The translations under genes and the position numbers were made by a program. DNA of 64,000 nt from positions 64,001-128,000 of the forward strand of contig CAVRAL010000005.1 in the NCBI GenBank assembly GCA_963719085.1. Reading direction: 5' to 3'. Of this stretch, positions 4,894 to 64,000 are shown one piece after another. How positions within the stretch are numbered: position 1 is the stretch's first letter; every line of letters starts with the position of its first letter. Below the pieces are notes generated by a model, which searched no databases, was not told where the DNA came from, and saw nothing but the letters and a program-made list of their open reading frames with translations. The DNA comes from a candidate division FCPU426 bacterium (GTDB taxonomy: Bacteria > Oederibacteriota > Muellerivitia > Muellerivitales > Muellerivitaceae).

Positions 4894-5003
4894 ACGGAAT
4901 TATTCACTTCACAACGCAAACCCTATTGAAACATTGATGGAGGCTGATGATGCCGATTTTTGGCACAAATATCAGTCTTCATCGGCATTTATCGTTGTTT
5001 CAA
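4894..5003 (-). repeat. Gene-less GxxExxY-type palindromic element (subfamily 1, no insert)
   Basis: Minus strand TTGAAACAACGATAAATGCCGATGAAGACTGAT...ATCAGCCTCCATCAATGTTTCAA plus tail TTGCGTTGTGAAGTGAATAATTCCGT; aligns by eye with 47103-47215 and 21445-21636. Confidence 0.85.
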
Positions 5004-16620: not shown

Positions 16621-17053
16621 AACAATGATGGACGCAGATGAACGCGGATGAGAACTATGGAAATAAATGAAATAACGGAAAAGACGATTGGAGCCGCCTA
16701 TAAAGTGAGCAACGCCTTGGGAGCGGGGTTTTTGGAAAAGGTTTACGAAAACGCCCTTTTCCTTGAATTACAAAAAATTGGTTTGAAAGTTAACCGGCAG
16801 CATCCGATTGTCGTCCGATACGAAGCTAATATTGTCGGGGAATATTTCGCGGATTTGCTAGTCGAGGATAAGGTCCTTATCGAACTAAAGACGGTCGAAA
16901 GTCTCTCGTCTATTCATTCAGCACAATGTTTAAATTATTTGAAAGCAACCGGTTTTAATGTGTGTCTTCTAATGAATTTTGCGGAAAGAAAATTGAAAAT
17001 AAAACGTTTAGTGAATCATTTTTAATCTGCGTTCATCTGCGTTCATCATTGTT
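16621..17053. mobile_element. Putative mobile cassette: GxxExxY gene bracketed by 29-bp inverted repeats
   Basis: Left AACAATGATGGACGCAGATGAACGCGGAT (16621-16649), right ATCTGCGTTCATCTGCGTTCATCATTGTT (17025-17053), 27/29 complementary; visibly AT-rich; sits between ppx and the tmk-like genes. Confidence 0.7.
16657..17025 (+). CDS. GxxExxY protein (PD-(D/E)xK nuclease superfamily)
   Basis: LGAGFLEKVYENAL (GxxExxY), ADLLVEDKVLIELK catalytic-type motif, AQCLNYLKATG. Confidence 0.95.
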   Translation: MEINEITEKTIGAAYKVSNALGAGFLEKVYENALFLELQKIGLKVNRQHPIVVRYEANIVGEYFADLLVEDKVLIELKTVESLSSIHSAQCLNYLKATGFNVCLLMNFAERKLKIKRLVNHF

Positions 17054-17073
17054 AATTGAAGGAGTGTTTTATT

Positions 17074-20726: not shown

Positions 20727-20814
20727 GTTGTTTACCGATTTTCCTTCCCGGACACCCGGGCCGCTTTTGCGCTTCTTATTTTCGAGGGATTATAACCAAG
20801 CCTCCCCCGGATCA

Positions 20815-20831
20815 TGTTAAAAGCTTGTAAA
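20815..20831 (-). promoter_or_regulatory. Putative autoregulatory Pho box of phoB
   Basis: Minus strand TTTACA-AGCTT-TTAACA; perfect TATAAT at 20789-20794. Confidence 0.75.
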
Positions 20832-20935
20832 ACCCCGCGGAGGCCCAATCATAAAATAGGCAATTTAGGCCGTTTTTTTCAGCCTGAACTCTCGTTTTTA
20901 TCCGTCGGGCAGGTCTCGTCATTTGTCTTTTCAAA

Positions 20936-20963
20936 TTAACTTTTAATTAACCCCTGCTTTAAA
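20936..20963 (+). promoter_or_regulatory. Possible Pho box upstream of the lone receiver gene
   Basis: TTAACT-N5-TTAACC-N5-TTTAAA (11-bp period). Confidence 0.5.
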
Positions 20964-21027
20964 ACCCGGACCCGCCGCGGCCCTATTTTGGCGCTCATCA
21001 AAAATAAAGAGCGAAAAAGGAACCCCA

Positions 21028-21426
21028 ATGTTCAAAGTCATGGTCATCGACGAGGATGTGCGTCAAATCCGGGAAATCACCGATGAGATCGGTTTGCACT
21101 ACGCGTTATTAAATTGCAGCCGGGGAATGAAGGCGTTGGAATTGTTGAAAGCCTTTCAACCCGACGCCGTGATCCTGGATCCCGCGACCCCGGATCTGAA
21201 CGTCCAAGAACTGATTACGGAAGCCCGGCGCCTGCCCGGAACCTCCCGCACCCCGATCCTGCTTCTCACCCAGTTCACCACCATCCGGCACATTGAGAAA
21301 AGCTTCGATTGGGGCGTGGACTTTGTTTTCTCGAAACCTTGCTCCACCGACCGCATTGGCCGCAAATTGGCCGAATGCCTGGAAAAAGCCCACCGATACC
21401 GCCATAGCCAGCTCGTGGAACTCTGA
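21028..21426 (+). CDS. Single-domain response regulator receiver
   Basis: VMVIDED, VILD, PILLLT, FSKP receiver pattern; no output domain. Confidence 0.85.
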   Translation: MFKVMVIDEDVRQIREITDEIGLHYALLNCSRGMKALELLKAFQPDAVILDPATPDLNVQELITEARRLPGTSRTPILLLTQFTTIRHIEKSFDWGVDFVFSKPCSTDRIGRKLAECLEKAHRYRHSQLVEL

Positions 21427-21444
21427 AAGCGACGGCAAATTCTA

Positions 21445-21675
21445 TTTAACATTGATAAATGCTGATGAAGACTGATGTGTGAAACACAAAAAATCGGGCC
21501 CTATCAGCCTCCGCATCGCTTCCCCATATAGAAGTTAGGGGAGAGCGACATTGTCCCGGGCATCCTCGACTTCGATATAGAGCCCCGGGGCATCAATGTT
21601 TCAATATGTCTTGCTTTGCGAAGTCAATGATTCCGTAAATATTTATCTGCGTAAATCTGCGTCTATCACTGCTAA
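21445..21675 (+). repeat. Gene-less GxxExxY-type element (subfamily 1) with 79-nt insert (21513-21591) and an extra right arm (21645-21675)
   Basis: TTTAACATTGATAAATGCTGATGAAGACTGAT...ATCAGCCTCC[79 nt]ATCAATGTTTCAA...AATGATTCCGT...ATCTGCGTAAATCTGCGTCTATCACTGCTAA. Confidence 0.85.
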
Positions 21676-21777
21676 TTGCCCTGGTTGGAGACCCCAGCCC
21701 TGGGGTATTTGTTACTGGAACGTAACAGGGCGTTTCACGATGCCTTACAAGCAAATCTTAGACTCATCCCCGACAAC

Positions 21778-22482
21778 ATGAAAAAAGCCGACCTCCACCT
21801 TCACACGGATTTCTCCGACGGGCTCCACAGCCCCCGGGAAATGGTTCAAGCGGCCTCCCGGGCCGGACTTGAGTTTATGGCGGTGACGGATCATGACACC
21901 ATGGAAGGGGCTTTCCGGGCCCAGGAATACGCCAAGCGCCGGCCGGACTTAAAAGTCGAAGTGATCTTGGGCGAGGAAATCAGCACGCTCAACGGCCATG
22001 TGGTCGGTTTATTTTTGAAAAGTTTCATCCCGCCCCGCCTCAGCGCCAAAAGAACCGTTGAGTTGATCCACGCCCAAGGCGGCGTGGCGGTCTTAGCCCA
22101 CCCTTTTCATCTATACACCGGCAAGTACCCGGGCCACGAAAGGGCCGTCGATATCCTGCCGGACATTCACTTTGACGGCATTGAAACCGTCAACCACGGC
22201 GACGCGCTTTCTTTTTGGAGCAACCGCAAGGCCGAGAAGGTGATGACTCAATCCCGGTTATCGAATATCGGCTGCAGCGACGCCCACAGTTCCCGCTTCA
22301 TCGGAATGGGCTATACCGAGTTTGCCGGTTCCACCCAGCAAGACTTAAGGCAAGCCATCCTCGATCAAACCACCCAAGCCCGTTACGCCCGGTCCTGGAA
22401 GCTGAATGACATCCTGGTTCATTTGCGAAACGCGGCGCCCGTACTTTCCCGCTACTCGAAAGTCCTTGAAACCCAAGCCTAA
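21778..22482 (+). CDS. PHP-domain metal-dependent phosphoesterase
   Basis: DLHLHTDFSDG, VTDHD, GEE, AHP, SDAH motifs; start moved to ATG 21778. Confidence 0.92.
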   Translation: MKKADLHLHTDFSDGLHSPREMVQAASRAGLEFMAVTDHDTMEGAFRAQEYAKRRPDLKVEVILGEEISTLNGHVVGLFLKSFIPPRLSAKRTVELIHAQGGVAVLAHPFHLYTGKYPGHERAVDILPDIHFDGIETVNHGDALSFWSNRKAEKVMTQSRLSNIGCSDAHSSRFIGMGYTEFAGSTQQDLRQAILDQTTQARYARSWKLNDILVHLRNAAPVLSRYSKVLETQA

Positions 22483-22494
22483 CCCCCCCAAACC

Positions 22495-22644
22495 AATTTA
22501 CAATGATGAACGCTGATAAATCCAGAACCTCTGTTTTAGTCATCTGCGTCCGCGTCGCTTCTCCACATAACAGTTAGAGGAGGGCGACATTGTCCCGGGC
22601 ATCCATGACTGCAATAGGGTGCCCCGGGACATCATTGTAAAATT
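22495..22644. repeat. Gene-less GxxExxY-type element (subfamily 2) with 79-nt insert (22552-22630)
   Basis: AATTTACAATGATGAACGCTGAT...CATCTGCGTCC[79 nt]ATCATTGTAAAATT; removing the insert restores 19 nt identical (reverse complement) to the GxxExxY left IR. Confidence 0.87.
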
Positions 22645-22657
22645 ATTCGTTTTGTCT

Positions 22658-23368
22658 TCACCAGCTGGAACATTGGTTATGAAGCGTCACGTAGTTTTGA
22701 TAGGTGTCCAGCTGGCCCTGCTCGTCCGCCACTTCCTGCCTAAACTGCTGGAAAATCGGGTCGAGGACCGAAGAAATCTCCTGATCCAGTTGGGCTTTCC
22801 CAGCCTCATAAGACGCGGCCGTCACAGCGTGATCGTGATCGGAAAAAGCCGGGTTCTTCTCAAGCGCTTGCCGCAGGATCTGCTGATACTTCAGGTAAAG
22901 CCGCCGGTGGATCGCCACATGGTCGTTCTCGTGGCTGAGCGTCACTTGGTAGGCACAGGTGCCTTCACCATAATCCCTGGTCACATAAACCGCCAAAGAC
23001 TTATAGGCGAAATGAACCGTCACCTGTTCCAGCCACAGGGAATATTTCGAGCTAAACCAAGAATGGTCATAATCCAGCTGATAGCTGGAATCCAAAGTAA
23101 AGTCCGCCACGGTCAAACCTGAAATCCGGCCGTCCTCTGAGGACTGCCCGTCCGACTTTAAGGCTCCAATCTCGTCGTTGCCCAGCTCATGATGATAAAC
23201 CGGATCCGCGAAACTAAAGTCATAACGGATCAAGGCGCCCGACGAGGGCGTCTGACCCAGATCCGCCGGCTCCTGGGCCTGGACTTGGTTTCGCTCATAA
23301 ACCAAAAAGGCGAAGAAGCCGGCCACAAAAATCCCCGCGGCGAGAATGAAATGAAGGCCCCTAGGCAA
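22658..23368 (-). CDS. Membrane-anchored DUF922-like putative Zn-dependent protease
   Basis: N-terminal TM, GLT motif, HENDH (HExxH), EQxxLD. Confidence 0.6.
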   Translation of the reverse strand: MPRGLHFILAAGIFVAGFFAFLVYERNQVQAQEPADLGQTPSSGALIRYDFSFADPVYHHELGNDEIGALKSDGQSSEDGRISGLTVADFTLDSSYQLDYDHSWFSSKYSLWLEQVTVHFAYKSLAVYVTRDYGEGTCAYQVTLSHENDHVAIHRRLYLKYQQILRQALEKNPAFSDHDHAVTAASYEAGKAQLDQEISSVLDPIFQQFRQEVADEQGQLDTYQNYVTLHNQCSSW

Positions 23369-24119
23369 GCGCGCCCTCTTTCCATAAGGCGATGCCTCCC
23401 AATAGACCGGCCTGGTTGGAAACCACTTTCATGTTTTTATCGAGCTTAAAATCCAAATGAGTGGCGTTGCCTCCGCCGATATAGATCCAGTCATAGTTGA
23501 CCAGGGTCCGCAATTGATCCAGGGCGCGGCGCACGCGCCGGTTCCATTTCTTTTTTCCTTTTTGGAGAAGGACCTTATCCCCGATATATTCATTATAGGT
23601 TTTATCATCGCGCGCCGGATGCTGGGCCAGTTCCAAGTGCGGCATCAGTTGGCCGTTTCTAAAAAGAGCGGTCCCAACGCCCGTTCCCAAGGTCACCACC
23701 AGTTCCAATCCTTTTCCCTGAATGACGGCCAGCCCCTGCATATCGGCGTCATTGAGAATTCGGGCCGGTTTACCCCACTTTTTTTGAAGGGTTTCGGCCA
23801 AGGGGAAGCGGCTCCAAACCTCGTTTCCAAAATGAGGCGCTGTGATGATGAGTCCATCCCGAACCACGCCGGGAAACCCAACCGAAACCCGGTCGAACGC
23901 GGGCAGGGGTTTTATTAACTGGGAGAGGGTTTCCACCATGACCTTCGGCGAACAGGGATAAGGCGTTTCCACCCGGACCCGTTCAACCTCCATGGCGCCC
24001 TTGGCGTCCAAAACGGATGCCTTTAAGCCCGTGCCCCCGATATCAATGGCCAGGGTATGGGGCCCGGCGAAAGGCTTGGGTGATTTGGGGATCGTCGACG
24101 GCTTTTCGGAAGAAGGCAT
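23361..24119 (-). CDS. ppgK: ROK family kinase, polyphosphate glucokinase-like
   Basis: IDIGGTGLK, VGFPGVV, NDADMQG, TLGTGVG, PHLELAQ, IGGGN; lacks the ROK Cys/Zn motif. Confidence 0.7.
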   Translation of the reverse strand: MPSSEKPSTIPKSPKPFAGPHTLAIDIGGTGLKASVLDAKGAMEVERVRVETPYPCSPKVMVETLSQLIKPLPAFDRVSVGFPGVVRDGLIITAPHFGNEVWSRFPLAETLQKKWGKPARILNDADMQGLAVIQGKGLELVVTLGTGVGTALFRNGQLMPHLELAQHPARDDKTYNEYIGDKVLLQKGKKKWNRRVRRALDQLRTLVNYDWIYIGGGNATHLDFKLDKNMKVVSNQAGLLGGIALWKEGALA

Positions 24120-24164
24120 AGGGTTCCTCGCGCGAATGATTTTCCCTATGGTAGCCCAACCCAA

Positions 24165-24196
24165 ATAAAAGAGGGAGGCCTTCCGGCCCCCCTCTT
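24165..24196 (-). terminator. Intrinsic terminator between the DUF4430 gene and ppgK
   Basis: Minus strand AAGAGGGGGGCC-GGAA-GGCCTCCCTCTT-TTATT. Confidence 0.75.
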
Positions 24197-24285
24197 AACC
24201 GAGCGGATCCCCCCCCGGCGGCACTGCGCCCCAACCGCCGTTTCCGCGTTAACCTGTTAAAACCTGAAACTTTGGTTACCTCTTT

Positions 24286-24690
24286 TTACCTTTTTAAACC
24301 AGCCACCGCTTCATACCGCCAAGACACCCGATCCCCTTCCCGAAGGTGAAACTGAAAGGCGGGTATCGGCCCCTTCTTGCCATTCACTGAATAAAGCCAA
24401 AAACGTCCGTTTTTTTTGTCGCAAACCACCCCGCCGATCGCTAATACATCCTTGGCGTTGCAACAAACCACTCCTTGTTTAACCAAAACCACATTCCGGG
24501 TTGCTTCCACTACCGTGCTTCCCGGATTGATGGAAACTTTTTGACGTATCAATGGTTTTCCTGCAGGCCCGTAATCGATGTCCACTTCGACGCCCATCTT
24601 TCCCGCCGGGGCGCCCTGGACTGAATGAAAATTTCCAAGGGTCAAAACCGTCATCATAAGAACAATTTTCCAGTTCCCGTTCATTTTCAA
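24286..24690 (-). CDS. DUF4430 (transcobalamin-like C-terminal domain) exported protein
   Basis: Signal peptide, V-x-x-IGGV, FWLYSVNGK, LREGDRVSWRY; overlaps the btuB stop. Confidence 0.75.
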   Translation of the reverse strand: MKMNGNWKIVLMMTVLTLGNFHSVQGAPAGKMGVEVDIDYGPAGKPLIRQKVSINPGSTVVEATRNVVLVKQGVVCCNAKDVLAIGGVVCDKKNGRFWLYSVNGKKGPIPAFQFHLREGDRVSWRYEAVAGLKR

Positions 24691-26684
24691 AGCGAAACTT
24701 TAATTCCGCCGTAGGCCGAAAGTCCGGGAGTCCTGTAACCCAAGACTTCCTCGTAGGATTGGTCGAAAAGATTGTCCACTCGGGCGAATAATTTCACTTG
24801 ATCGTCCAATTGGAAGGAACCGCGCAGGTTGACCAAAAGGTAAGCCGGCATGGTCACCAAGCTGGAGGTGTTGAAATCCTCATCCAACCGGGTTCCCACA
24901 TAATCCAGTGAGCCGCCCAATTCGAATTTTCCAAATTGGTAGGACCCGTCTAAGTCGCCTTGGTGCGCCGGACGGCGAATCAGGGGTAATCCCGCGTCTA
25001 GATCACTGGGGCTCGTGGAAAGGTCTTCGCTGTCAAGATAGGTATAGTCAACCTTCAGCTGTAAATTTCGTACTCCCACCAATTCCAAGAAAGCCTCCAC
25101 CCCTTGGGTGCGGGCCAAGGCCACATTGATGTACTGAAAGGTCAAAGGATCCGAACCGAAAAGATTGGTGTAATCATCGTGATAAAAGGTGGCACCGGCC
25201 TTGAAAAGCCCCAGGGGCTGTTCAATCCCGAAATCAACCCCGGCGTTGGTTTCTGGCCGAAGGGAAGGATTTCCGTAAGAAGGGTCGTAAAGCTGGTATA
25301 AGTTCGGCGCTTCAAAACCCGTTCCCACATTGGCCGTCAACTTGGTTTCCGGTCCCGGCACAAAATAAGCCGCCCCAGCCTGGAAAGTCGCGTGGGTTCC
25401 GAACTGGTTGTGCGCGTCCACCCGCCCGCCTAGATTCAGGAAAAACCTGTCCGCGGCCTTTGTCTGACTCTGCAGGAAGGCACTGGCCATTTCAGCGTTG
25501 GCGGAAACATAATCCGAATAGGTGGCGTCATTGACGTAGCCCCACTCCTTATAACCCTCGACACCCAACACCAGAGTCTCCTCGGGAGCCAGCCTCAGGT
25601 TGTTCTGCCAGGTCACCTTGGCCATTTGCCCATCGTAATTCTCAGTCGAATCGGACGAGGCGGAATAGGCCGCGTCGAATTTGTCCGTGTAGACACGGTT
25701 GTCGTCGACAAAGGATATTCCCAGGACCTGTTCCCAATCCCCCAGGGTCAGCTTAGATTGACTGCCCAGGGTCAATTGTTTTTGATCGGCGAAGTAGTTG
25801 GGGTCCGCCCCGCCCACTCCCGCGTACTGCAAAATATTCGTGTGGGATTGGCTGTAACGCGCCACGAGGTCGGTCGTGAGGTTCGATACCGGGGACGCGC
25901 CCACCTTCAAAAGGCCGCTGGTGTCCTGGTCCGGATTGTTCAAAGTATCCCCAGTGGATTGATCCCCGTTGGGAAAACCATCGGTGTCAAAACGGGAAGC
26001 GGTTAGCGAAAAATTAGCTTCCGCGTCACCACCCTGGGCCGAAGCCTGCTCTTGGAAAGTCCCGTAAGAACCGCCGTCAAATAACAGCGACCCGCTCAGA
26101 GGACCGTTTCCATTACGGGTGATAATATTCACCACGCCCGCCATCGCGGCGGAGCCGTAAAGAGCGCTTTGCGGCCCGCGGACCACCTCAATTTGTTGGA
26201 CGCCGTCCAAGGACAGCTGATCCAAATAATCGTAGGACCTGGAAGCGTCAATCGGATTGTTCAACGGAATCCCATCCATCATGACCAAAGTGGAGTCGTC
26301 GTTTCCCCCCCGGGTGTAGAGCGAAGTAGTCTCGCCGGGCCCGCCGGTCTGGGCCATATGCATTCCCGGAACGTCCTGCAATGCGTCAAAAACAGTGGCA
26401 TCTTGTTTTTGCTCGAAATCTTTGGCCGTCAAAACGGTCAAGGAACCGGTAACCTGGCTGGCCGGCGTATCCAGCCGATTCGCGGTGACCACCACCGGCT
26501 CCAAGGTGGTCTTATCGGCGGCGATCGTATTGGAAGAAGCTTCCGCCGGGAGAGAGCCAACGACGGTTTGAGTCATGGTTGAACTAGGCGTCAATTGCGG
26601 CAAGGTGTTTTGAGCGAAAAGAACGGCGGGATAAAACAGGAAAAAACCAAAAAAATAACGGCAAAAACGGCTGAATTGAGTCAT
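24687..26684 (-). CDS. btuB: TonB-dependent cobalamin receptor
   Basis: EPVVVTANR TonB box, IEVVRGPQSALYGS plug, RVDNLFD; under a B12 riboswitch. Confidence 0.9.
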   Translation of the reverse strand: MTQFSRFCRYFFGFFLFYPAVLFAQNTLPQLTPSSTMTQTVVGSLPAEASSNTIAADKTTLEPVVVTANRLDTPASQVTGSLTVLTAKDFEQKQDATVFDALQDVPGMHMAQTGGPGETTSLYTRGGNDDSTLVMMDGIPLNNPIDASRSYDYLDQLSLDGVQQIEVVRGPQSALYGSAAMAGVVNIITRNGNGPLSGSLLFDGGSYGTFQEQASAQGGDAEANFSLTASRFDTDGFPNGDQSTGDTLNNPDQDTSGLLKVGASPVSNLTTDLVARYSQSHTNILQYAGVGGADPNYFADQKQLTLGSQSKLTLGDWEQVLGISFVDDNRVYTDKFDAAYSASSDSTENYDGQMAKVTWQNNLRLAPEETLVLGVEGYKEWGYVNDATYSDYVSANAEMASAFLQSQTKAADRFFLNLGGRVDAHNQFGTHATFQAGAAYFVPGPETKLTANVGTGFEAPNLYQLYDPSYGNPSLRPETNAGVDFGIEQPLGLFKAGATFYHDDYTNLFGSDPLTFQYINVALARTQGVEAFLELVGVRNLQLKVDYTYLDSEDLSTSPSDLDAGLPLIRRPAHQGDLDGSYQFGKFELGGSLDYVGTRLDEDFNTSSLVTMPAYLLVNLRGSFQLDDQVKLFARVDNLFDQSYEEVLGYRTPGLSAYGGIKVSL

Positions 26685-26789
26685 GGCCCACTCCCCGAGG
26701 CAGAATTGGCTTAAACGGGAGCTCGAACGGAGGGACCTTCGAAAGAAGGCATTACTCCGCTTCTTACACCCGAAGAAGCATCAACAACG

Positions 26790-26943
26790 CTCAAGGCCGG
26801 TCTCCTGACTTGGGAATCTGACGTTCGCCTTCCCGGGCTTTCACCCAGTGGCCGCCTCATTGAAGAGGCCTGAACGGTAGAATTGCTTCCCTTACAGTGG
26901 CGGGTCCGCGCCGGATTCTCACCGGCTTCCCGATCACCTTGAG
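26790..26943 (-). ncRNA. Cobalamin riboswitch (btuB leader)
   Basis: Minus strand GGGAAGCCGGTGAGAATCCGGCGCGGACCCGCCACTGT...GCCACTGGG...GGGAAGGC...AGTCAGGAGACCGGCC. Confidence 0.95.
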
Positions 26944-27015
26944 TTGTGCGTACTTAATACCTGCCTTTTCAAAAACTGTCAACGGAATTTAAATCCTCTA
27001 ATAAAAATTAATTTC

Positions 27016-27172
27016 ACAATGATAAATGCTGATGAAGACTGATATTTGAAAAACACAAAATCAGACCCCATCAGCCTCCGCATCGCTTTTCCATATAACC
27101 GTTAGGGGAAAGCGATATTGTCCCGGGCATCTTTCACTTTGATATGGAATCCCGGGACATCAATGATTCCGT
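27016..27172 (+). repeat. Gene-less GxxExxY-type element (subfamily 1) with 79-nt insert (27080-27158)
   Basis: ACAATGATAAATGCTGATGAAGACTGAT...ATCAGCCTCC[79 nt]ATCAATGATTCCGT; abuts the btuF stop. Confidence 0.85.
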
Positions 27173-28042
27173 TTAATTTTGGGACTCGTCAAATATTTTC
27201 GAAAGATATTCCGCCAGCCCCACCATGGTAGGACCGGGAATGAGAAACTCATCTTGTTTCAGGAAATAAATATGGTTTTCGCGCACAGCCTTCAAAGAAG
27301 GCAGGGTGGCCCACGCCTCTTTCGCTTTAGCGATGGTGTCCCCCGTCGCCTCATCGCTGGGCATGGAATCCACGATCACGTCCGGATCACGCTTGATCAA
27401 TTGTTCTTTGGAAACCAAAGGAAAAGCAATGGCGGTTCCGGTCAGAACATTACGTCCCCCGGACAAGGCGATAATTTCCCCCACAAAACAGTGGTCTCCC
27501 GCCGCGTAAATCCGCTGGAGCTCACCCACGTTGTGCCCCACGACGAAAAGAATCGTCACCGGCTTCCGGGCCCCCGCGTGTTTTCGGACCCGATCCAACC
27601 GCGCCTGCAGTTTTTGTTTAGCCGCCCGGGCCCGGACTTCACACCCCAAGGTTTTCCCCAAGCGATCGTAGGTATCAAAAATATCCTGGAGGCTGGAATT
27701 GTTTTGGACTAACACCGGAATTCCCAGCTTTTTAAAACTTTGAATCGTTTGACCGTAAAAAGGAACCAACAAAACCAAATCAGGCCTGAGCGAAACGATC
27801 GTCTCAAAGTTAGGATTAAAAAAACCGCCCACCTTCGTTTTCTTTTGCGCCTCCGGGGGAAACTTACAAAAATCAGTGACGCCGATCAACTGATCTTGCG
27901 CGCCGATGTCATAAATAATCTCGGTAAAATGAGGCGACATGGAAATAACCCTTTGGGGAATGGGGCTAGCCGCTCCCGCGGGCAGAATCCAAGCGCTCAT
28001 CCACCCCAAAATAAATAGTCCCATTCTTAGTCTCATCGCCAT
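27173..28042 (-). CDS. btuF: Cobalamin ABC substrate-binding protein
   Basis: QRVISMSPHFTE, GVTDFC, PNFE, EQLIKRDPDVI, PGP. Confidence 0.88.
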   Translation of the reverse strand: MAMRLRMGLFILGWMSAWILPAGAASPIPQRVISMSPHFTEIIYDIGAQDQLIGVTDFCKFPPEAQKKTKVGGFFNPNFETIVSLRPDLVLLVPFYGQTIQSFKKLGIPVLVQNNSSLQDIFDTYDRLGKTLGCEVRARAAKQKLQARLDRVRKHAGARKPVTILFVVGHNVGELQRIYAAGDHCFVGEIIALSGGRNVLTGTAIAFPLVSKEQLIKRDPDVIVDSMPSDEATGDTIAKAKEAWATLPSLKAVRENHIYFLKQDEFLIPGPTMVGLAEYLSKIFDESQN

Positions 28043-33484: not shown

Positions 33485-33584
33485 CCTTCCCCTGGGGGTC
33501 AGGCTTTTTCAGGGGAAGGGGTGGTGAGCTTTTATAAAAAAGGCTCTCCGCCGCTTCTTACACCCGAAGAAGCCGACAATAAAG

Positions 33585-33812
33585 CTCAAGGCCGGTCTCC
33601 TGGCTTGAAAGCTTGCCCTCCGCCTTCCCAGGCTTTTGCCCAGTGGCCGCCTCTTTAAAAAAGAGGCCCGGACGACAATTAGCTTTCTCACAGTGGCGGG
33701 TCCGCGTATCGCCTTCTTTTCAGTTACTTCCTGAAGACGATATGTTCCGTCCCCGGACTTTAAATCCAGGGACTTCACAACCGGAATTTCACCGGCTTCC
33801 CAAACACCTTGA
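33585..33812 (-). ncRNA. Cobalamin riboswitch (bluB-cob leader) with a 74-nt internal insertion
   Basis: Same core as 26790-26943, but 33707-33780 is inserted between TCCGG and CGCGGACCCGCCACTG (minus strand). Confidence 0.88.
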
Positions 33813-33848
33813 ACGATGGTGCCTTGATACTCCGGTTTTAAGGGGAAG

Positions 33849-35791: not shown

Positions 35792-35889
35792 ATTTAACAA
35801 TGATAAACGCTGATGAACGCGGGAATGAAATATCTTAAATCCTATGATTTTCCCAAATCTGCGTTCATCAGCGTTCATCATTGTTAAAT
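35792..35889. repeat. Gene-less GxxExxY-type palindromic element (subfamily 2, no insert)
   Basis: ATTTAACAATGATAAACGCTGATGAACGCGG (35792-35822) / CTGCGTTCATCAGCGTTCATCATTGTTAAAT (35859-35889), 29/31 complementary, 36-nt spacer. Confidence 0.92.
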
Positions 35890-47102: not shown

Positions 47103-47215
47103 TTGAAACAATGATAAATGCGGATGAAGACTGATGTTTGAAACACAAAAATCGGGCTTTATCAGCCTTCATCAATGTTTTAACAGCTCTTGCTTTGCGA
47201 AGTGAATGATTCCGT
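47103..47215 (+). repeat. Gene-less GxxExxY-type element (subfamily 1, no insert)
   Basis: TTGAAACAATGATAAATGCGGATGAAGACTGAT...ATCAGCCTTCATCAATGTTTTAA...TCTTGCTTTGCGAAGTGAATGATTCCGT. Confidence 0.88.
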
Positions 47216-47221
47216 ATGAAT

Positions 47222-48184
47222 TTAATCACCGATATAACCCTTGGCGTTTTCCTGGAACTTAAACCGCGCGGCGCCTTCATCCAGTGAAGGATCTTCCGGA
47301 AAGCGGTGTCCCGTAATCCAAATTAAATTATCTTTATCCAGTCGATAAAGATCGGTCCAGGTGATTCCCCGCCCGGTCTGGGTAATCGCTAAGTAACTTT
47401 TTCCCGCCCATTGAAAAGCTTGGTCGATTTGGTTGTGGGGCAATCGGTTCCAAACCCGCAATTGGTCCCCCACCCGGCAAAGCACGGTCTGGTTGGTTTG
47501 TTTGGTGGGGTACTTATATTTCAGCTCAAGCCATTCGATGCCGGACGCCTTATCGCAAAAAGATTGGCCGTAATTCGACTCGGTCATCCAGCGTTTGATT
47601 TGCCAATCCGGCGGCGGATTTTTCAAGCCCGCCAGCATTTGGGTGAATATCTGCTGGGATGAATATTCGGGAAGGAGAATGGGGCCAAAGTCCGTGGCGC
47701 GGTCCGAAGCGACCGTTCGCGGCGAGGAAGAAGCGTCCTCCAAATAAACCGCCCGTTCGGTCCAACGGCTGGTGCCGTCAAGGGTGGCGGGCAAAGAGGC
47801 GGCCTCAAAATGAAACCAAGCGCAAACCGGGATTTTACCGATTATTTTTTGCGCTTTGAACCCGCCGACCTCGACGCTTCCCCGGCAAACCGAGTCATAA
47901 AAGACCCAAAGCTTTTCATTTTTCAGGGGTGACAGCGAAAGCGAGGGCGCCAAGTCATGGGGAAATGCCCCCATGGTCTTTTTCATCCGTTGGAGCAGGG
48001 CCGCTTCCCGGCGTTCTTCGCGCGCCGTGTCGCCCTCCCGGGGAGCGCACCCCTGGACTTCCACAAGACGGTCCAGGAAAAACCGGGGCGCCGGCTGGGC
48101 GAAGGCCGCATCGCCGACGAACCAGGCGAGAATCAACGCCCCTGCCGCGAAGCCGATTTCTTTTCGAAACATCCTGAACCCCAA
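47222..48184 (-). CDS. Hypothetical exported protein
   Basis: 320-aa ORF with signal peptide, directly downstream of GH94. Confidence 0.65.
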   Translation of the reverse strand: MGFRMFRKEIGFAAGALILAWFVGDAAFAQPAPRFFLDRLVEVQGCAPREGDTAREERREAALLQRMKKTMGAFPHDLAPSLSLSPLKNEKLWVFYDSVCRGSVEVGGFKAQKIIGKIPVCAWFHFEAASLPATLDGTSRWTERAVYLEDASSSPRTVASDRATDFGPILLPEYSSQQIFTQMLAGLKNPPPDWQIKRWMTESNYGQSFCDKASGIEWLELKYKYPTKQTNQTVLCRVGDQLRVWNRLPHNQIDQAFQWAGKSYLAITQTGRGITWTDLYRLDKDNLIWITGHRFPEDPSLDEGAARFKFQENAKGYIGD

Positions 48185-63864: not shown

Positions 63865-64000
63865 GGGGTCGCCGTAGGCGTAAAGGTTTTGGTAAAGGAT
63901 GGGTTCACCGTCGGCGTCTTGGTAGGCGTCCGCGTCACGGTAGGCGTGAAAGTCTTGGTAAAGGACGGGTTGACCGTCGGAGTCTTAGTAGGCGTCTGCG
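63861..64000 (-). CDS. 3' end of an upstream Pro/Thr-rich protein (partial)
   Basis: QTPTKTPTVNPSFTKTFTPTVTRTPTKTPTVNPSFTKTFTPTATP*; 22-aa (66-bp) tandem repeat; ATGA overlap with the next gene. Confidence 0.75.
   Translation of the reverse strand, partial: QTPTKTPTVNPSFTKTFTPTVTRTPTKTPTVNPSFTKTFTPTATP

Follow-up and report, generated by a model that had tools for sequence, protein, structure and literature searches.

A gene-less two-hairpin module inserted in palindromic repeat arms of one bacterial lineage, probably a non-autonomous mobile element

Few parts of bacterial genomes are as poorly understood as small hairpin repeats, and, to our knowledge, the REPIN/RAYT system is almost the only one of them with a known mechanism. 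That system is recognized by a GTAG-type tag and by an orientation tied to the replication strand, a bias that IS200/REP-type single-strand-DNA elements show. IS200/IS605-derived elements insert 3′ of a conserved target of 4–5 nt with a Y1 TnpA acting in trans; their miniature derivatives, the PATEs, carry a hairpin near each end, cause no target duplication and keep a fixed orientation to the target. In enterobacteria, the ERIC/IRU short and long forms and the BIME mosaics are intergenic palindromic repeats with or without an internal block of around 70 nt at a fixed site. In the sources on which we draw, REPINs are doublets of REP sequences mobilized by RAYT tyrosine transposases (Bertels and Rainey 2011, PMC3116915), REP sequences are linked to hairpins lying sub-terminally in IS200/605 (Ton-Hoang et al. 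2012, PMC3333891), and IS1397 and ISPpu9/10 are insertion sequences (ISs) that target REP sequences (Tobes and Pareja 2006, PMC1525189; ISPpu9, PMC12288879). Here we describe, in a 64,000-nt stretch of DNA from a candidate division FCPU426 bacterium (the window; C5:64001–128000 of a 3.04-Mb, five-contig genome, G000, that is 99% complete), a two-hairpin module lying inside the arms of palindromic repeats of the type that carry GxxExxY genes. The module family is about 72–87 nt in length, gene-less and restricted to one bacterial lineage. We document its anatomy, covariation, distribution, variety of contexts and one filled/empty pair, and we propose that it is probably a non-autonomous insertion element, similar to a REPIN or to a MITE (a transposable element of the miniature inverted-repeat class), that targets GxxExxY-type repeat arms and then spreads with them. 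No published description of the module was found in the open literature (subscription journals were not covered), nor was any account of these host repeats found under 'GxxExxY' or 'PDDEXK_3' in open full text.

The window contains three copies of the module, each of 79 nt on the plus strand, which a repeat finder assigns to a single 97-nt family at 81–84% identity to copy 1. Copy 1 (21513–21591) comprises hairpin 1 (around 21516–21548), the linker ACATT and hairpin 2 (21553–21591); copy 2 (22552–22630) has its hairpins at around 22554–22588 and at 22592–22630, and copy 3 (27080–27158) at around 27082–27116 and at 27120–27158. Covariance-model searches of the window return six matches, namely the three module sites on both strands, with the plus strand stronger at each: under our broader model (R2), plus- and minus-strand scores are 63.9 and 36.5 bits for copy 1, 65.4 and 30.4 bits for copy 2, and 73.3 and 43.8 bits for copy 3.

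Each copy occupies the same slot, after the last right-arm decamer unit (...ATCnGCcTCC or ...GCGTCC) and before the terminal ATCA(A/T)TG of an unstranded palindromic repeat. Host repeat 1 (21448–21600) belongs to the GATAAATGCT/GATGAAGACT subfamily, has its module between ...ATCAGCCTCC and ATCAATGT and continues as a conserved outer extension to around 21645; host repeat 3 (27015–27166) is of the same subfamily, with the module between ...ATCAGCCTCC and ATCAATGA; and host repeat 2 (22500–22638) is of the GATGAACGCT subfamily, with the module between ...ATCTGCGTCC and ATCATTGT. Three host repeats lack the module, and in these the arm unit ...TTC directly abuts the terminal octamer ATCA(A/T)TG. 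Two of them lie at 4930–4999 (minus strand) and 35796–35888 (unstranded), and the third (47107–47178, plus strand) shares the subfamily and outer extension of host repeats 1 and 3. A further module-less host (16621–17054, plus strand) has decamer arms around a gene (16648–17025) for a 125-residue GxxExxY protein of the PD-(D/E)XK type, also classed as PDDEXK_3 (TIGR04256, E = 1.3e-41; PF13366, E = 3.8e-40). The initial annotation had reported 79 extra nucleotides at TCC^ATC in three right arms, their absence from the copies at 4.9, 35.8 and 47.1 kb and their presence in both host subfamilies, all of which the arms bear out at the coordinates above. It had also claimed that excision of the 79 nt at 22.5 kb restores the left arm of the GxxExxY repeat, and the reverse complement of the resulting 19-mer is indeed identical to positions 16622–16640 when compared by script.

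Several features of the surroundings concern the hosts rather than the module. The outer extension, TTTCAACAGGTCTTGCTTTGCGAAGTGAATGATTCCG-like and around 55 nt long, is conserved at 21591–21645 and 47170–47224 of the window and at C4:148443, C4:604856 and C1:266671; an inverted version of it stands on the left side too, making this host subfamily, that of copies 1 and 3, a composite palindrome of greater length. A lone right-arm fragment of two decamer units and the terminal octamer lies at 21644–21678, around 50 nt past host repeat 1, with no partner left arm seen. In G001, a genome of the same genus, the intergenic sites orthologous to those of window copies 1 and 2 are without any repeat.

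Each window copy folds into two hairpins (z-scores against shuffled sequences of −3.0 to −4.8 as RNA and −2.3 to −4.8 as DNA) spaced by 3–4 nt. Across the 30 near-full-length copies of the genome, 93% of 633 stem cells are paired compared with 36–59% when partners are slid, and changes on both sides occur in 7 of 22 pairs. To extend this beyond one genome, a wider alignment was assembled of 60 sequences from 14 genomes, comprising 10 of these 30 copies, 8 diverged variants from the same genome and 42 modules from 13 other genomes; the variants and the modules of relatives represent 50 of the 51 sequences left after removal of near-duplicates from 68 module contexts that were read (L099 was omitted). 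Counting on the 15 register-safe pairs only, 93% of cells are paired, 13 pairs carry compensatory changes and 103 cells are changed on both sides compared with 30.8 in shuffles, with none of 500 shuffles reaching the observed value in any of five covariation measures. The covariation test proposed in the initial annotation thus gives a positive answer for both hairpins, on the basis of pair counts against shuffles. The stems differ outright in sequence among subfamilies (GCGTCGCTT/GAGCGAC, GCCGACC/GGTCGG, GCCACTT/AAGTGG, GCCGATC/GATCGG and others) and nevertheless pair, indicating that the hairpins are under selection.

The loops are themselves constrained. Hairpin 1 carries CCATA(A/T)AG..GTTA(A/G)GG across genera, and hairpin 2 carries approximately its complement. 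The earlier description of conserved stems and variable loops is therefore retained in one part, as pairing is kept, and revised in the other, as the stems covary while the loops hold the motifs ATA(T/A)A..GTTA(G/A)G and their approximate complement in hairpin 2. Loop 1 and the reverse complement of loop 2 are 57% identical compared with 48% in shuffles (z ≥ 2 in 12 of 47 two-domain folders). Because the module is pseudo-palindromic in this way, models score both strands closely in some subfamilies, and 10 of 68 strand calls are marginal; for the analysis of junctions, strands were called without use of the flanks, with a hidden Markov model built only from sequences clearly oriented by R1, the covariance model trained on the 30 full copies. 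A kissing-loop interaction was considered and set aside: despite the complementarity of the motifs, their central bases frequently fail to match and shuffles are exceeded only modestly, and we read the likeness as inherited pseudo-palindromy. The module ends also differ between groups, relatives having ends of the form RTGCCGA...TCGGCAY and the window subfamily GCGTCGC...CCCGGGAC, which match only weakly. Within the stems of the genome's own copies, 95 cells are G.T and 19 are A.C, a bias that the host arms do not share (17 versus 32 in 14 elements), and this excess points to one strand as the folded one.

Iterated nhmmer searches identified 36 copies of this subfamily genome-wide, of which 30 are near full length, and every one of the 36 is flanked by the last arm unit and the terminal ATCA(T/A)TG of a decamer-armed host. 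Of the six partial copies, three lack the hairpin 2 loop between the CCCGGG halves (C4:927463, C4:1208521 and C4:407020) and one (C1:1032954) consists of hairpin 2 only, between two terminal octamers. A strict motif counts around 133 arm ends, 97 of them empty and 36 filled. The genome search with a covariance model and the tabulation of slots that the initial annotation had recommended added, with R1, at least eight diverged variants in other slots or repeat families of the genome (L034–L036 and L061–L065). Four are second-type inserts lying one decamer deeper in the same host family (C1:1035034, C4:340700, C4:968664 and C1:266587), one is a further diverged insert in a decamer-armed host (C4:1143511), two are two-hairpin inserts in an octamer-armed 'CGCCAAG' family (C1:365896 and C4:218790), and one lies in another octamer-type arm (C4:192695). 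The host subfamily with the long outer extension is accordingly found in three states: empty, with type 1 in slot 1, and (one copy) with type 2 in slot 2. Contigs of four sequencing runs covering 20800–27600 gave no module polymorphism; a single joint (21492 to 21591, with 18 other letters between) skips the module, and we take it as a paralog rather than an allele because those letters are those of the module-less subfamily (compare the 47.1-kb copy).

Beyond this genome, R1 matches 12 of the 24 other family genomes and none of 16 drawn from elsewhere in the order and phylum. R2, at a threshold of E ≤ 1e-4, matches 28 of 30 other same-family genomes and 1 of 68 elsewhere in the phylum (G048, with two weak matches); its per-genome totals are lower bounds rather than copy numbers, and more than 700 matches were reported altogether. 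Of 24 family genomes, 21 have GxxExxY genes, which occur as well in families f4 and f9, both without the module. The genome studied here has four such genes, each between a different type of arm (decamers, CACCAAG and two CGCnAAG variants).

Most of the 68 contexts are arms of palindromic repeats, with at least six kinds of unit that seem, by eye, to be unrelated: decamers, CACnAAG octamers, CACAGAG units, GAGTT units, ATCCCATGC/ATCTGTGGC arms and arms beside a CGCAATGAC palindrome. Usually the module lies towards the outer end of the arm, where it splits a unit or occupies the junction of two. In G022 (L051) and G012 (L052), at around 1426–1582, two different modules stand in direct tandem within one arm, with the inter-module junction ...C^A.... 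Many loci of G005 have both the module and the host arms in common, so composites multiply as units. How similar two hosts are hardly correlates with how similar their modules are (Spearman 0.065; 36 of 2,000 Mantel permutations reach the observed value). Another palindromic motif, GTCATTGCG...CGCAATGAC, is found repeatedly next to or within the repeats of relatives (L053, L072, L075, L087 and L111) and of the genome itself (C1:966424 and C4:821621), such that the repeats look like mosaics of several hairpin units. At L109 (G004:C133, 285–287), one module abuts the start of a guaB-like open reading frame (ORF), the first two bases of the ATG being the end of the module.

Three contexts, in G023, G022 and G001, are not repeat arms. 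In G023, an ORF6N-family gene is split by a 76-nt copy; the N-terminal piece matches ORF6N (E = 1.3e-33), and the residues at the split, NIEI|IRAFVRLRQ, align residue for residue with NIEIMRAFVRLRQ of an uninterrupted homolog in G012. In G022, a parE toxin gene is split by a 79-nt copy into halves that correspond to positions 1–32 and 37–88 of the ParE profile. G012, of the same genus, has the uninterrupted parE ortholog (87% identity over the C-terminal part), reading ...MVDRL|TGRS where G022 reads ...MVDRL(79 nt)TARS; direct comparison of the DNA gives ...CGC CTT ACC GGC... in G012 and ...CGC CTC (79 nt) ACT GCC... in G022. The two loci form a filled/empty pair in which the net gain is exactly the 79-nt module. 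Translational bypass or intron-like removal of the insert was considered, as ATC stands on both sides at the ORF6N site, but there are no matching codons at parE and nothing further spoke for it. In G001, from the genus of the window, the only copy lies inside a tRNA-Pro-like pseudo-copy adjoining the real tRNA-Pro, between two tandem GCGCTAC units. This locus (L039, G001:C133, 520–840) consists of tandem tRNA-Pro-like pseudo-copies beside tRNA-Pro(TGG), each with an extra hairpin at the region of the anticodon loop, and the GCGCTAC units flanking the module belong to the D-arm region of one pseudo-copy.

The junctions follow a simple rule. The module is preceded by C and followed by A in 49 of 68 contexts; T precedes it in 11 and G follows it in 11, which, where both hold, is C^A read from the other strand. 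Among the full copies of the genome itself, C precedes in 24 of 24 and A follows in 23 of 24. Since most modules start with A or G and have C as their last base, insertion without duplication and insertion with a 2-bp CA duplication are both compatible with the data, and the parE pair, in which both junctions are C|A, is likewise consistent with either. Relative to neighbouring genes (n = 36), 13 modules are between convergent genes, 12 are co-directional, 9 are antisense to both and 2 are between divergent genes; the upstream (5′-side) gene runs in the sense of the module in 25 of 36 (P of around 0.03 by our own arithmetic, from copies that are not independent).

Set against the described systems, the module resembles REPINs in several respects. 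It is tiny, gene-less and present in dozens of copies per genome; it has two roughly inverted hairpin units with a short spacer, a symmetry that is only partial since the stems differ in sequence; its GACC/GATT subfamily could fold as one long hairpin (by hand pairing only); and it persists vertically within one lineage. It differs in that no Y1/RAYT gene is found in its own genome or in G006, G019, G020 and G023, in being without a replication-strand bias or a GTAG-type tag, and in living inside another repeat family. With the REP-targeting insertion sequences it has in common a specific, oriented insertion into palindromic intergenic repeats; those are kilobase-sized and bring their own transposase, whereas the module, at 72–87 nt, has no coding content and lacks a parent IS in the genome. 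Similar to the PATEs, it has a hairpin near each end, a fixed orientation to the target and insertion consistent with no duplication, but there is no Y1 gene, the conserved flank is one base per side (C^A) rather than a tetra- or pentanucleotide, and the hairpins reach the very ends. Filled and empty sites of the kind expected for a classical MITE are found in parE (G022 filled, G012 empty) and in the ORF6N-family gene (G023, with the uninterrupted G012 homolog), and no transposase-bearing parent IS sharing the module's ends was found in the genome itself (five transposase families and a half-model search). On tests of membership that depend on a known transposase, the module falls outside the REPIN/RAYT, IS200/IS605-derived and classical MITE classes.

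ERIC and BIME repeats offer a different parallel, as here too a host repeat comes with or without a block at a fixed site and hairpin motifs form mosaics. The corresponding explanation is that the module is an optional internal domain, a long form created on a few occasions through local duplication or template switching and spreading only with the whole repeat, the module-less copies being the short form or losses. The occurrence of all 36 own copies in one slot of one host family suits it, as do the lack of any element filled at both ends, the near-identity of composite copies including their flanks, the hairpin-2-collapsed copies at C4:927463, C4:1208521 and C4:407020, which indicate that internal deletions between CCCGGG halves occur, and the absence of an intact gene of the five tested transposase families from the genome. 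We nevertheless regard it as unlikely, as the module family occurs at different slots of arm types that look unrelated by eye, in the tRNA-Pro-like pseudo-copy of G001 and in two protein-coding genes without repeat arms, one of them with an empty ortholog in a sister species, and as host and module similarity are nearly uncorrelated. The parE pair in particular argues against this explanation in its strict form. Unlike the ERIC/BIME block, the module is also found in two genes, a tRNA-like segment and unrelated-looking repeat families of relatives; these, together with the filled/empty pair, mark it as an element in its own right, and it falls outside a class defined by being only part of a repeat. 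The proposal in the initial annotation of a second, site-specific mobile module parasitizing the repeat is in this respect supported, through covariation, through other slots and repeat families and through the ORF6N and parE interruptions; it had named a lack of covariation and of other contexts as counting against it, and covariation and other contexts were both found.

That annotation had also raised a structured RNA, for which we find no support beyond the fold itself. A role as RNA, in which the module would be a structured cis element on read-through transcripts or a small RNA acting in stability, processing or protein binding with the repeat as a mere carrier, would account for the covariation of both helices, the excess of G.U-type pairs on one strand in the own subfamily (95 versus 19), the conservation of loop motifs across genera, the same-sense 5′-side gene in 25 of 36 cases and the sense orientation of the module in both interrupted genes. 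It is improbable in our view. The unambiguous settings divide into 12 co-directional with both neighbours and 9 antisense to both, with 13 between convergent genes; hairpin 2 is not followed by a run of T; the other strand of this pseudo-palindromic module folds equally well; and insertion into genes with breakage of the frame is the behaviour of a mobile element, not of a regulatory RNA. No Rfam family matches the module at threshold: in the comparison that had been suggested at the outset, Rfam 15 at the gathering threshold returned only two cobalamin riboswitches from the window, a search of 21400–22700 at E ≤ 10 gave one chance microRNA match, and seven loci of other subfamilies gave nothing on the module. 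A hammerhead-like string in the host arm, CTGATGA...GAAAC, was dismissed, as it derives from the decamer units and has no Rfam hammerhead match. Least probable of all, and by a wide measure doubtful, is that the two hairpins are a protein-binding site in duplex DNA, for instance one for a dimeric nucleoid- or repeat-binding protein, that the repeats gained to serve a host function: the loop motifs do form an inverted repeat (ATAAAG..GTTAA and TTAAC..CTTTAT) and there is no replication-orientation bias, but compensatory changes keep intramolecular stem pairing across subfamilies, which binding to duplex DNA does not require, and copies interrupt genes.

We propose that the mobile module would enter in one orientation at a 5′-C^A-3′ step with no loss of target bases, with a strong preference for the unit junction near the outer end of GxxExxY-type repeat arms, and that, once inserted, host and module would be copied together as a composite. 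The hairpins may be kept because the mobilizing enzyme recognizes a folded single-stranded nucleic acid, most likely DNA. A number of observations weigh against this proposal, some of them against its single-stranded DNA component. With the module on the G-rich strand in 15 cases and on the C-rich strand in 21 (P = 0.41), there is no replication-strand bias; the minus strand folds about as stably as the plus strand; 10 of 68 strand calls conflict with the flank-based orientation, some subfamilies being marginal; and the cross-genus G.T excess is weaker, at 45 versus 23 A.C cells, with one fixed pair providing 32 of the 45 and another fixed pair 16 of the 23. In the genome itself no module was seen outside a host arm (36 of 36 in arms), no filled/empty polymorphism was seen, and no element is filled at both ends, where around 4.8 would be expected by our own arithmetic if ends were filled independently. 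Near-identical composites exist, for example C4:148364 and C4:604777 and the G005 series, and host and module clearly also multiply as a unit, so that much of the copy number may stem from spread of the host rather than from movement of the module. A long version bearing an ORF was not found either (0 of 41 hairpin-1 matches in the genome with hairpin 2 at 25–5,000 nt).

In the genome itself, the mobilizer is not a Y1/RAYT, IS110, IS4-type or TnpB protein. Searches there for Y1_Tnp (RAYT/IS200, PF01797), DEDD_Tnp_IS110 (PF01548), DDE_Tnp_1 (PF01609) and the TnpB zinc ribbon (PF07282) gave no match, other transposase families not being searched, and the sole rve (IS3-type) match is a fragment of 110–130 residues. 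Y1 genes are also absent from G006, G019, G020 and G023, which carry at least 13, 29, 41 and 38 R2 matches, respectively. The genome has well over 100 palindromic repeats, though none of the five searched transposase families is intact in it. A more specific version of our proposal, which we offer tentatively and consider rather doubtful, is that the module is a hyperparasite, a transposase-less two-hairpin DNA inserted at C^A by the PD-(D/E)XK nuclease of the GxxExxY repeat or by an undescribed host enzyme. This would explain the targeting of repeat unit junctions, the success of the module in a genome where none of the five tested transposase families has an intact gene, and the otherwise intact appearance of the interrupted genes.

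Other features of the window stand apart from the module. The two cobalamin riboswitches (RF00174) lie on the minus strand at 26778–26956 (96.9 bits) and 33573–33841 (63.9 bits); the former, which belongs to the minus-strand gene at 24687–26684, lies just upstream of module copy 3. Two tandem 66-nt units of 85% identity occupy the end of the window (63868–63999).

Annotators should not take as regulatory RNAs or promoters the dozens of places that the covariance models mark in each genome of the module-bearing family (f1). The defined substrates (the module, the arm junction and the parE site), together with a short list of candidates led by the GxxExxY nuclease, make the question of the mover a testable one. 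Collectively, these observations present what is probably a second tier of tiny mobile DNA living inside another repeat family, with a clean structural signature, a range of one bacterial family and a simple junction rule.

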